Assembly: GCA_050248615.1 (NCBI GenBank)
Contig: JBFWSA010000026.1
Span: 1-31,091, forward strand
Origin: Simkaniaceae bacterium
GTDB taxonomy: Bacteria; Chlamydiota; Chlamydiia; Chlamydiales; Simkaniaceae
Length of the DNA stretch: 31,091 nt
Reading direction: 5' to 3'
This document shows positions 1,511 through 4,336 of the stretch, piece by piece; positions within the stretch are counted from its first letter, which is position 1; every line of letters begins with the position of its first letter. The notes below the pieces were generated by a model, which saw only the letters and a list, made by a program, of their open reading frames with translations, ran no database searches and was not told the DNA's origin. Made by a program: the position numbers and the translations under genes.

Positions 1511-1980
1511 TCCTCATGGCGATTTATGATATTTTCGAGCATGTGGAAAAGCGGGCGGAGTTGGGAGAAGATACAATCGATCTTTCTTACCATATTTCTG
1601 AGATGAAGTTGGGGGGAAAAGAAAAGGTTCCTGAGAGCCATATTTTTTCATCCATTGCGGCACGTTTCTTTTTTTTCATGTTGCTCCTTGCGGATATCGC
1701 CTGGGGAATATTTAATATAGGGGTGTTTATCTTAGCGTTAATGGGGAATGTGTTAACAGGTTTTAAGCTTTTTAAACTGAAAAAATACTTTCACCGTCGG
1801 TGGCTCAATATTAAACGTTCTTTTGTGTGTGGAGTCTCTCTTTTTGTGGCTCTTTTTAGTCCCGCACTCGGCACAATGTTTGCCTGCACCTACTTTCTCA
1901 TGTACGATAAAAAGGGAATCGATGAAGTGGTCCCCTCAGTTCTTCAAGATCAGTTCCGAGAATTTCTCAATCCTCAATAA
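1507..1980 (+). CDS. Hypothetical membrane protein (2-3 hydrophobic segments), translationally coupled to sthA
   Basis: 157 aa ORF overlapping the sthA stop (GTGA); ATG at 1516 is an alternative start; hydrophobic stretches FFFFMLLLADIAWGIFNIGVFILAL and FVCGVSLFVALFSPALGTMFACTYFLM; overlaps the convergent gene by 14 bp. Confidence 0.7.
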   Translation: MILMAIYDIFEHVEKRAELGEDTIDLSYHISEMKLGGKEKVPESHIFSSIAARFFFFMLLLADIAWGIFNIGVFILALMGNVLTGFKLFKLKKYFHRRWLNIKRSFVCGVSLFVALFSPALGTMFACTYFLMYDKKGIDEVVPSVLQDQFREFLNPQ

Positions 1981-4336
1981 AATCTAAAATATCTTCTTCG
2001 TTATTGAAATCGAGGCGTAAGGTATGATGCGCGCCCCCTTTTTCGAGGCATTTCTCTAAAATCTTAGTACGTAAGTCCACTTGAATCGCCTCCCGAATAG
2101 GAGAAAATCCCTCTAAAGGAGTGACGAGTGTAGAAAAGGAAGAGACAAAGTCTTCCGTCCAGGTGAGGGTAATATGCCATTTTTCCTTTACCCGTTCGTG
2201 TTCTTCTTGAAGAAATTTTAAGGTGATCGCTTTGATAGCTTCTTTGTTTTGAAGAGGACTGAAGGGAAGGGTCGTAAACCGGCGGAGTAAACTCGCTCTG
2301 GGGCCGCTAAAAAACTGGAGCATAGCGGGTGTAATCAGATCCAGAATTGTTTGGGGGTGGGAACAATCCCGAGGAGTTCCTCTGAAAAATACCCCTGAAG
2401 GGGGATTGAGGGCTTCTAAAATAGCTGAGCTGCCAAAATTGGATGTGAAAATGACAAAAGTGTGATGCATTTTCACTTTTTCTCGAGAGACGGGATCGAT
2501 CATTTCGCCCTCTTCTAGCAAGTGGTGGAGGAGCATGAGTGCAACCTGGGGATGACATTTATCGATTTCGTCGAGAAGAAGGACCATCGGACCTTTTTTT
2601 GCAGCATTTAAGATGAGCCCTCCCCCTTCATGCCCTACATAACCGGGAGCAACACCGGTTAAGGTGTTCACATCATGGACTGTTTTGAAATCTGTCATGG
2701 GGATGTGGACAAACGGGATGTTAAGGTATTTTGCGATCGCTTTAGCAAGCTCTGTCTTTCCCGTTCCAGGAAGCCCTACAAAATGGAGGCGTCCCTGGGC
2801 TCGATCTTGAGAGGTTTCATCATGAATCACAAGACGGAGATGTTTTGCAACCTCTTTAATGACATGATCTTGACCTATTACCTCCTTTTTCAAAAAACCT
2901 TCAATGTCTTCGGGAGGTTCATAGGGAGCTAAAATATGCTTAATAAGGGGGAGGGAGATGTGGCTAAAAAAGAGGCGATTTTCCCCAATAGCTTTTTTTA
3001 AACGTACGATCGTTTCTTCCGCTTCTTGTCTCATTGGGCTCTCTTTGGGGACAGCGATTTGATTTAAAAAAGAGAGTTTTCTTTCCCAGTTCTGGAGTTC
3101 TATCTCTTGGCTTTCCTGAGCACCAATCGCTTCTCCTCTCTGACGTTTAAGGGAGCCCTGTGCGTATTGTGTCTCTAAGAAAGCTTGGGCACGATCTAAA
3201 ATTACTAATAAGCTTTGGGGAAGTTTTTGATAGGGAAGGTGGCGTTTACAGAGAGAGATTGTTTGTTTAATCACTTCTTCTTCAACATGGGGAAATGTAT
3301 CTTTTGCGATTTCTAAGAGCTCCTGATCTGAAGGTTCCTCTATAGTAAGGGGAGTGAATGGGGGAAGGTCGATTTCTTTGCGTGCACATCCTAGGTAAGA
3401 AACCGAGTCCAGAGTAGATAGAAAGCGGTCTAAAAATTCTCTAGGAACAGCATCTAAATCTTCTAAGATGAGGACGATGTCGTCTTTATGGAGTTGAATG
3501 AACTGTTTGAAATAGATGACTTGATTCTCCGAGGCACCCTTAAGAAGTTTTAGGTTTACGGTCACAGACTTTTTGGGGGAGCAGCTGTTTGCAAGGGCTG
3601 TTTTTGCCACTCCTGCAGGGCCAATCAGGAGAGGATGAGAGCGGTATTGTTGCCTAAAGATCCGCTCGATTGCCTGTTTTTCTTTAAGGCGTCCGATACT
3701 GGACTGACCCGTCTCATTAAGGAAGGGGGAGAGTACAGGGGGGATCATAGAGTGAGGAGAAGGGGGAATTTTTAGGCGCGTCCACGCGTGAGGTTCCACC
3801 CCCTCTTCTACTAATTTTAAGAGGATATCTTGCCGATTTTCCTCTGTAGCACTCTGAAAGAGGTCTAGTAAAGGAGGCGCTTTAGAATTAAAGGGGAAGC
3901 CGTTTAATAAGAGCTCATAAGTATAAGCTTTAGCGCGGGGTGTTTTGATACAAAGATCAGCAAGGGTTTCTCCTGTGTCATTTGTCAGAGTCCAATCGAC
4001 CCCCCTTTTATATAAGAGAAAAGCCCCTTCGAGGTTTTCACTGTTTAGGGCTTCTTTCTGCGCAGTCTCCATACAATCAGGAGCAAAAATAGCGTAAGCA
4101 ATGTACTGGATGGCGTAAACAAGGACATTGATCAAAGGGATAGAGTAAAGAGCTGCTAGTGCAGTATGACCAAAAGCCCAAAAAGAGTAGTAGCAGAGAG
4201 CATCAGGATCTTTTTCAGCCTGGTGAAAATAATGCGTCGCACGTGCAAGATGCCATTCCCTTTCACAGTCTACACCCTCCCAAAGAGAGGGGTCTGGAAA
4301 GGGAGCACCTAAACTTAGGATAAGCGGTTGTCCCAT
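1967..4336 (-). CDS. Divergent Clp/Hsp100-like AAA+ protein with N-terminal hydrophobic hairpin and ankyrin-like repeats; degenerate NBD1, largely intact NBD2
   Basis: NBD2: VIGQDHVI, Walker A GLPGTGKT, pore loop PGYVG, Walker B LLLDEIDK, sensor-1 FTSNFG. NBD1 remnant: IGR, PLLIGPAGVAKT, LILED. ATG at 4336 preferred over the TTG at 4342 used by the ORF track. Confidence 0.85.
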   Translation of the reverse strand: MGQPLILSLGAPFPDPSLWEGVDCEREWHLARATHYFHQAEKDPDALCYYSFWAFGHTALAALYSIPLINVLVYAIQYIAYAIFAPDCMETAQKEALNSENLEGAFLLYKRGVDWTLTNDTGETLADLCIKTPRAKAYTYELLLNGFPFNSKAPPLLDLFQSATEENRQDILLKLVEEGVEPHAWTRLKIPPSPHSMIPPVLSPFLNETGQSSIGRLKEKQAIERIFRQQYRSHPLLIGPAGVAKTALANSCSPKKSVTVNLKLLKGASENQVIYFKQFIQLHKDDIVLILEDLDAVPREFLDRFLSTLDSVSYLGCARKEIDLPPFTPLTIEEPSDQELLEIAKDTFPHVEEEVIKQTISLCKRHLPYQKLPQSLLVILDRAQAFLETQYAQGSLKRQRGEAIGAQESQEIELQNWERKLSFLNQIAVPKESPMRQEAEETIVRLKKAIGENRLFFSHISLPLIKHILAPYEPPEDIEGFLKKEVIGQDHVIKEVAKHLRLVIHDETSQDRAQGRLHFVGLPGTGKTELAKAIAKYLNIPFVHIPMTDFKTVHDVNTLTGVAPGYVGHEGGGLILNAAKKGPMVLLLDEIDKCHPQVALMLLHHLLEEGEMIDPVSREKVKMHHTFVIFTSNFGSSAILEALNPPSGVFFRGTPRDCSHPQTILDLITPAMLQFFSGPRASLLRRFTTLPFSPLQNKEAIKAITLKFLQEEHERVKEKWHITLTWTEDFVSSFSTLVTPLEGFSPIREAIQVDLRTKILEKCLEKGGAHHTLRLDFNNEEDILDFIED

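Follow-up and report, generated by a model that had tools for sequence, protein, structure and literature searches.

Introduction

Non-hydrolyzing AAA+ rings that stand beside a working ring are known from Pex1/Pex6 and NSF, and the Plasmodium protein HSP101 of PTEX is a Clp motor used at the vacuole membrane; these eukaryotic systems belong to other AAA+ clades or have intact nucleotide-binding domains (NBDs), and they have no N-terminal domain in common with the gene analyzed here. That gene encodes a protein of the Hsp100/Clp kind and lies in a 31,091-nucleotide stretch of DNA from a Simkaniaceae bacterium (the window; contig C26, JBFWSA010000026.1, of the 2.04-Mb chlamydial genome GCA_050248615.1, here G000). 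Its closest described counterparts are ClpB, with the order NBD1, M domain, and NBD2, and Skd3 (human CLPB, ANKCLP), which joins a hydrophobic stretch, ankyrin repeats, and an NBD2-type module (PMC7343390; papers given by PMC number are cited from excerpts). The excerpts describe Skd3 as having neither NBD1 nor M domain and as requiring its ankyrin domain and pore Tyr (PMC7343390), as carrying an insertion after sensor-1 (PMC9584538), and as having arisen by a holozoan ankyrin-Clp fusion (PMC4339202). Among chlamydial proteins, Inc proteins have two clear transmembrane helices within 40 to 60 amino acids (aa) (PMC3048545), and the ankyrin proteins of Simkaniaceae are regarded as candidates for host interaction (PMC11317633). 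The DUF575 domain of Chlamydia pneumoniae Mbp proteins spans roughly 100 aa at the N terminus, includes a hydrophobic segment, and attaches to host endomembranes on expression; according to the same excerpt, secretion of the Mbp proteins through the type III secretion system (T3SS) was beyond what that work could test (PMC7609445).

We found that the gene directly behind clpB in the window encodes a chimera in which a hydrophobic cassette, of a type that recurs on effector-like chlamydial proteins, stands in for the Clp N-domain and is followed by putative ankyrin repeats and a ClpB-type body with a degenerate NBD1. The explanation that we favor, with a probability of about 0.45, is that the product is a membrane-docked, effector-type AAA+ ring that would act on the host side and that in this strain would be a slow ATP-binding clamp more than a motor.

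Results

Architecture of the chimera

A preliminary description of this DNA, made from the sequence by itself, reported a Clp derivative 26 bp behind clpB. Both the open reading frame (ORF) and the gap were found again, with clpB (4363-6969) on the same strand and the chimera starting at an ATG at 4336; an alternative TTG at 4342 would add 2 aa. The features of the chimera are as follows.

1967..4336, minus strand: cassette-ankyrin-ClpB chimera gene, 789 aa (ORF call; model of predicted local distance difference test score [pLDDT] 83)
4076..4336, minus strand: N-terminal cassette, aa 1-87, a long helix (W28, H29) plus a hydrophobic hairpin, H57..P67..N70 (profile, model)
3803..4075, minus strand: about three divergent ankyrin-like repeats, aa 88-178 (profile matches; helix pairs in model)
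3158..3721, minus strand: shortened NBD1, aa ~206-393, with the Walker A Lys kept and the pore loop, catalytic Glu, and Arg fingers lost (alignment, model, census)
3599..3622, minus strand: NBD1 Walker A, GPAGVAKT, aa 239 (motif scan; position 3606 differs between strains)
2966..3154, minus strand: short M-domain helical hairpin, aa 395-457, without the ClpB helix-3 segment EIRYN (model, alignment)
1970..2911, minus strand: NBD2 and small domain, aa 476-789, with Walker A/B, GYVG, sensor-1, and Arg finger kept (domain hit, census)
2357..2407, minus strand: aromatic/basic loop insertion after sensor-1, aa ~644-660, at the ClpC VGF-loop site (alignment)
2099..2110, minus strand: sensor-2 motif GFSP, with Ser745 where 17 of 18 family members have Arg (census)

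The AlphaFold model of the chimera (pLDDT 83) matched ClpB and ClpC structures in fold, and identity to the neighboring ClpB was 24% over both NBDs and 31% over NBD2 alone. A Pfam search detected no Clp N-domain (PF02861) in the chimera. In its place lies an uncharged stretch of 41 aa (aa 46-86; 4079-4201) with a Kyte-Doolittle 19-residue maximum of 1.85, modelled as helices 44-63 and 69-84 with a kink at Pro67, in agreement with the earlier claim that a hydrophobic hairpin had replaced the N-domain. The M region is likewise short, as had been noted, measuring 79 aa versus 137 aa in the neighboring ClpB.

The preliminary description also proposed ankyrin-like units. When the N-terminal 189 aa were modelled alone (pLDDT 93), three long helices were followed by three helix pairs. 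Pfam gave no hit to aa 88-178 when the chimera was searched alone, and a 17-row profile of the family described below matched ankyrin and DARPin sequences of the PDB over profile positions ~86-178 (best whole-sequence E value, 5.6e-20; best single stretch among the matches listed, 0.002). Retrieval with the family profile returned ankyrin proteins in 17 of 23 hits, and ESM features placed the N-terminal region in ankyrin clusters at 0.91 to 0.92. Structure searches with the N-terminal model were weak: Foldseek listed ankyrin rows at E values of 0.28 or worse with no significant fold match, and VIA-align gave no match with Z of 5 or more and no recognizable ankyrin entry among the 50 matches listed. 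Sequence profiles and the modelled helix pairs thus suggest an ankyrin identity for aa 88-178.

Effector-like chlamydial proteins carry a related N-terminal cassette

Within its own genome, the hairpin pattern H..L..IP.[IV]N..Y occurred in only four of the scanned ORFs, namely, the chimera and three large tandem proteins on contig C23 (L207:3785-14858), two of which have Pfam ankyrins right after the hairpin. Across 401 chlamydial genomes of the order, 39 of them from the family of the window, a cassette profile matched 41 genomes, 28 of which lie outside that family. The cassette fell within the first 100 aa in each of 20 non-Clp ORFs examined, seven of which had Pfam domains (Ank, PARG, LRR, NUDIX, F-box, a weak ART, and a weak DUF575) and 13 none. 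Conversely, a profile built from 19 non-Clp rows ranked the chimera 4th among 3,130 ORFs of its own genome (E value, 0.0065) and matched 16 family rows and no canonical Clp protein. Because the cassette is common to effector-like chlamydial proteins, a membrane or effector role gains support, and the cassette may be an effector or membrane-targeting tag. The earlier suggestion of a membrane-tethered or T3SS-secreted unfoldase is thereby strengthened in its membrane/effector part; its unfoldase part is taken up below.

The cassette resembled known targeting elements in part. As in Inc proteins, a hydrophobic segment of some 40 aa, modelled as two helices, lies near the N terminus of the chimera, and the chlamydia bears a T3SS (genes at 10536-15519 of the window). 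The hairpin is weaker and less clearly transmembrane than Inc domains, shows a conserved H..P..N pattern, and in some members is interrupted by charge. DUF575 (PF04746) matched neither the chimera nor anything else in G000, and 3 of 25 cassette rows matched it weakly, below the cutoff (best E value, 0.0028). No Pfam family covers the cassette, an ESM Atlas search with aa 10-92 gave no usable hit, and a PDB sequence search with the cassette profile gave a weak PsbY row only. The cassette, widespread in chlamydiae at the head of otherwise unrelated proteins, has the signature P[FY]xEG-helix-SL.ER..HL..G.LL.IP.IN (loci L219-L237, L207:3785-14858, and L082:5270-7741).

NBD2 keeps its nucleotide-binding residues and NBD1 is degenerate

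Motif conservation was counted over 18 intact family members, leaving out an interrupted member in genome G024. Relative to ClpB, the chimera lacks the Clp N-domain, the catalytic, pore (KYRG), and Arg-finger (ERRF) residues of NBD1, and the helix-3 segment of the M domain; LILED lies at aa 289 and LPPF at aa 324. In NBD1 of the family, the Walker A Lys was kept in 15/18 members, the Walker B Asp in 12/18, and the catalytic Glu in 1/18. The preliminary claim that NBD1 had lost its working parts therefore holds for the catalytic, pore, and Arg-finger residues; it does not hold generally for Walker A, which reads GVGKT in all four other sequencing runs, in the database product P0001, and in the 90%-identical P0013. 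We conclude that GVAKT is a strain allele. As the Walker A Lys is kept and the catalytic Glu and pore loop are gone, NBD1 would be a passive, non-hydrolyzing scaffold tier.

In NBD2, all motifs quoted earlier were present (GLPGTGKT at aa 521, GYVG at 565, LLLDE at 586, TSN at 631, LRRF at 684, and GFSP at 743). The Walker A Lys, Walker B Asp, sensor-1 Asn, and Arg finger were each found in 18/18 members. The catalytic Glu was kept in 14/18 (Asp in the other 4), the pore aromatic in 13/18 (Leu in 5), and the sensor-2 Arg in 17/18, the loss being confined to the species of the window; in relatives the loss falls instead on the pore Tyr or on the Walker B Glu. All seven residues were intact in 11/18 members and in only 3/9 within the clade of the window protein. 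Given these invariant and variable positions, the pattern suggests that binding of nucleotide and contacts within the ring have been selected more than hydrolysis and threading have. A complex prediction for three NBD2 copies scored 0.12 and was counted neither way.

The equivalent sensor-2 mutant of Thermus ClpB NBD2, R806A, binds ATP and is almost dead as an ATPase, and sensor-2 mutant subunits impair Skd3 (PMC3940203 and PMC9584538, respectively, as excerpted). Because sensor-2 is Ser in this strain, its copy is a predicted weak ATPase, which argues against the active unfoldase that the preliminary description had envisaged here.

The likeness to Skd3 could mean that the chimera works at the bacterial inner membrane on proteins of the chlamydia itself, as a disaggregase or unfoldase that does not need DnaK. 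The order of hydrophobic stretch, ankyrins, and NBD2 resembles Skd3 (PMC7343390, as excerpted), as does the insertion after sensor-1 (PMC9584538, likewise); the gene begins 26 bp behind clpB; the chimera retains GYVG, Walker B, and an Arg finger, and NBD2 is complete in 11/18 members. The EIRYN helix-3 segment, which we take to be the DnaK contact of ClpB, is missing in all members. We nevertheless consider such an internal role improbable: against what Skd3 needs, 7/18 members have no ankyrins, 5 have a pore Leu, and 4 have Asp for the catalytic Glu; a patchy distribution and a ratio of nonsynonymous to synonymous substitution rates (dN/dS) about 4 to 6 times that of clpB are unlike a housekeeping chaperone; and other carriers of the cassette include host-type domains. 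Nor did the data favor the relationship to Skd3 that had been drawn from the architecture. All intact members keep an NBD1 remnant, M remnants are usually present, ankyrins are optional, and Ser745 leaves the NBD2 of the chimera without the complete Skd3 catalytic set; that NBD2 scored 106 to 110 bits against Thermus-type ClpB entries versus 78 to 81 bits against Skd3. Because Skd3 has no NBD1 or M domain and began as a holozoan fusion, the likeness is likely convergence.

The insertion after sensor-1 raises a different reading, that of a dedicated ClpP-partner unfoldase in which this loop is a degenerate ClpP-docking loop. The distance from sensor-1 to the Arg finger is 53 aa in the chimera, 37 in ClpB, and 45 in ClpC, and the insertion sits at the ClpC VGF-loop position and is aromatic rich in clpB-adjacent members (SGVFF, YLLF, and WQFF). 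The docking loop of ClpA and ClpC has the consensus [LIV]-G-[FL]. As the consensus occurs in no member, the insertion of the chimera reading SGVFF, a ClpA/ClpC docking loop was rejected. Since second-locus paralogues in G027, G035, and G362 have no loop at all and the family branches with ClpB rather than ClpC, a ClpP partner seems very improbable to us. Membership in ClpV/TssH was also rejected (TIGR03345, 146 bits versus a cutoff of 885), and the ClpB model TIGR03346 scored 121 versus a cutoff of 1232. By the tests applied, the chimera belongs to none of Skd3/CLPB, ClpB, ClpC, or ClpV.

The chimera belongs to a ClpB-derived family with patchy distribution

Profiles and synteny identified members of this fast-evolving group of proteins from environmental chlamydiae in 11 of the 39 family genomes, other searches supplied further member proteins, and the N-terminal 210 aa alone matched 6 of the 401 genomes, all within the same family. 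Members directly followed clpB in seven genomes (G000, G010, G012, G022, G025, G027, and G362). Others lay at a second locus away from clpB (G027, G035, and G362, with an interrupted one in G024), and G008 encodes a 544-aa member without NBD2, consisting of cassette, ankyrin-like region, NBD1-like part, and coiled coil (L076:4997-6631). An alignment of closer N termini found 25 loci, four of them family loci from Simkaniaceae, Chlamydiales, or uncultured bacterium, and these four are not included in the family counts. A single-sequence search returned the protein's own cluster and generic Clp proteins only, and none of 60 loci from a metagenome scan was a family member.

Three size classes were apparent: 861 to 930 aa, with ankyrins, a near-full NBD1, and a long M region (125 to 133 aa); 773 to 834 aa, with a shortened M region (the window protein among them); and 550 to 594 aa, in which NBD1 is collapsed and both the ankyrins and the M region are absent. 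The seven members without ankyrins all fall inside the clade of the window protein, which groups with the short forms at a support of 100*; this argues against substrate selection through ankyrins as the core function, as had been proposed. In one tree, the nine sampled members formed one clade (97*) beside chlamydial ClpB (98*) with ClpC outside, and in another the family and chlamydial ClpB branched together at 96*. Both were quick searches with long branches and contained no Skd3 row; the NBD2 tree omitted 12 rows that were redundant, partial, or very long. The phylogeny of NBD2 that had been called for places the family inside or beside chlamydial ClpB. The fold and the M region of the long relatives also resemble ClpB, and we conclude from the trees, with caution for long branches, that the family descends from ClpB. 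No description of it was found in open-licence full texts (PMC, bioRxiv), a search outside which lie subscription papers and supplements, where chlamydial proteome or effector tables may give members simply as "ClpB"; the chimera would be a variant of the Hsp100/Clp kind.

Pairing with clpB was incomplete. At the locus, 8 of the 39 family genomes have the gene, 12 have clpB only, 7 have neither, and contig breaks obscure the other 12. Where clpB and the marker gene described below lie on one contig, the gene is missing from 12/19 loci. In G005 (94% complete, 240 contigs), a member occupies the locus although clpB is not beside it, and a clpB orthologue was not found anywhere in that genome. 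These data bear on the idea that the product is a coexpressed subunit that joins ClpB hexamers and damps them or tethers them to the membrane. Its position directly downstream of clpB in seven genomes would fit, and a hydrolysis-poor NBD1 and an NBD2 without sensor-2 Arg would poison a mixed ring. The 12 clpB loci without the gene, the G005 gene without clpB, the paralogues away from clpB (not counting the interrupted G024 member), and an NBD2 only 31% identical to that of the neighboring ClpB make the tether or regulator of the preliminary description quite improbable. The clpB pairing, whose conservation across Chlamydiota had been proposed as a check, is present in those seven genomes and absent from 12 of the 19 loci.

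Selection, strain variation, and loss

Nei-Gojobori dN/dS was calculated for four pairs of family orthologues, not for the window gene itself, and was 0.153, 0.151, 0.203, and 0.227, the last near saturation; domains taken separately gave 0.10 to 0.26. For clpB, three pairs gave 0.035 to 0.041, so that the family values are roughly fourfold to sixfold higher. We conclude that the orthologues are under purifying selection and that the gene is dispensable and often lost. The dN/dS near 1 expected of a decaying duplicate was not seen in these pairs, homologues with the same architecture exist, and family, synteny, and dN/dS (0.15 to 0.23) agree with a repurposed Clp paralogue.

Strains of the species of the window differed at the gene by at least 11 nonsynonymous and at least 8 synonymous changes. 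Run X13 has a 4-bp insertion at 3917, which matches the 141-aa product P0017, and database fragments P0016 and P0015 suggest a second split allele near codon 220. Several assemblies encode the complete 789-aa product (P0001, P0012, and P0020), and run X5 covers the locus in one contig with no indels. In G035, a remnant of 44 codons (L130:3084-3218) fuses the first and last residues of the family, consistent with a single large in-frame deletion.

One reading of this variation is that the family is functional and that the copy in this species is under relaxed selection and being lost, the sensor-2 change reflecting decay rather than design. The sole loss of the sensor-2 Arg among 18 members, the broken X13 allele and the suggested split allele, the count of nonsynonymous changes, the G035 remnant, the interrupted G024 paralogue, and the absence of the gene from the locus in G001, of the same genus, all fit. 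The full-length products, the intact X5 locus, and the 90%-identical P0013 do not, nor does the retention of all nucleotide-binding residues in an NBD2 that is 44% identical to the nearest NBD2; moreover, frequent gain and loss is typical of effector genes. We regard decay as unlikely, though less so than the other alternatives above.

Proposed mechanism and points against it

Under the membrane-docked ring explanation, a copy of ClpB would have been fitted at its front end with the cassette and ankyrins of an effector-like protein. The cassette would bind membrane and mark the protein for export, and the product would likely be delivered to the host side of the inclusion; there, the version found in this strain would bind ATP and hold a client or membrane with little efficient threading. 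Assembly would take place on ATP, with NBD1 as the inert tier and NBD2, whose nucleotide-binding and intersubunit residues are invariant, as the selected core. Ankyrins may contribute client binding where present. Those long members whose NBD2 is intact would probably work as motors without DnaK, and the clade of the window protein may have drifted to slow or non-threading clamps. Counted in favor of this explanation, the slot after clpB elsewhere holds a patatin gene (G008) or TPR/nucleotidyltransferase genes (G026).

Several points weigh against a host-directed, membrane-docked ring. The link through the cassette consists of about 20 to 35 hairpin residues with modest E values and is partly circular, as the 19 non-Clp rows were first found using a profile that contained family members. 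The hairpin is moderately hydrophobic and is broken by charged residues in several relatives, and the N-terminal 25 residues are not markedly rich in Ser, Thr, or Pro. Structure search did not confirm the ankyrin fold, long branches weaken the trees, and a gene placed 26 bp after clpB on the same strand could equally encode a cytoplasmic partner. Finally, given the at least 11 nonsynonymous and at least 8 synonymous changes and the broken alleles, the chimera copy may be losing function.

A more far-reaching version is that a bacterium's own Hsp100 motor became a secreted, membrane-anchored effector, reduced stepwise to a Skd3-like one-motor machine, as an independent invention of the ankyrin-Clp combination that acts at the inclusion by remodelling or trapping host proteins. 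Behind it is a reduction series in the family, from full NBD1-M-NBD2 through a dead NBD1 to a collapsed NBD1 with no M domain or ankyrins. No report of a host-delivered bacterial Hsp100 effector was found in open-licence PMC and bioRxiv full texts. We hold this version to be doubtful as a whole, if less so than decay. If secretion is true, ATP-driven remodelling or trapping of host proteins would be a new effector activity. The family would also be a natural deletion series from a double-ring Clp to a single-motor, DnaK-independent machine like Skd3, and the cassette may serve as a marker for predicting effectors in uncultured chlamydiae.

Locus and other Clp-related observations

The neighboring features are as follows.

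4363..6969, minus strand: clpB, intact, upstream neighbor of the chimera gene (domain hits, motif alignment)
1507..1980, plus strand: conserved hypothetical membrane protein, convergent, locus marker (ORF call, synteny)
110..1510, plus strand: sthA, soluble transhydrogenase, synteny marker (family match)

The marker ORF (157 aa) lies downstream of sthA, overlaps the last 14 bp of the chimera gene, has no Pfam or NCBIfam match, and is present in 37/39 family genomes. A promoter scan was at chance (10 versus 7.1 +/- 3.2), and no perfect CIRCE element was found. Contigs from RNA runs overlay parts of the chimera gene in 4/4 runs; because these may be DNA, expression is not claimed. DNA of the window was seen in metagenomes from landfill, hot-spring, freshwater, and wastewater, and from these habitats the host of the chlamydia is probably a protist.

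Apart from the chimera family, clpB was missing from the locus in eight family genomes (L038, L127, L137, L139, L140, L144, L145, and L146), among them genomes that are 98% and 99% complete, and the query used detected no orthologue of chlamydial clpB in any of the eight. The slot after clpB varied, with patatin, TPR plus nucleotidyltransferase, or unknown ORFs (L042:7699-9222, L129:3135-7415, L128:4103-6246, and L143:524-2413). Two further divergent ClpB-like proteins have novel N termini (L030:6-2654 and L043:4735-6654), one combining intact NBDs with tandem repeats of about 61 aa and the other having a degenerate NBD1. Three other chlamydial families contain proteins of 509 to 576 aa with one ClpB-type NBD2 (L026:2296-3825, L031:386-1927, and L027:5791-7521). 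These have intact motifs, a GYVN pore, and no recognizable NBD1 and form their own clade, and two of the three start with a signal-peptide-like N terminus.

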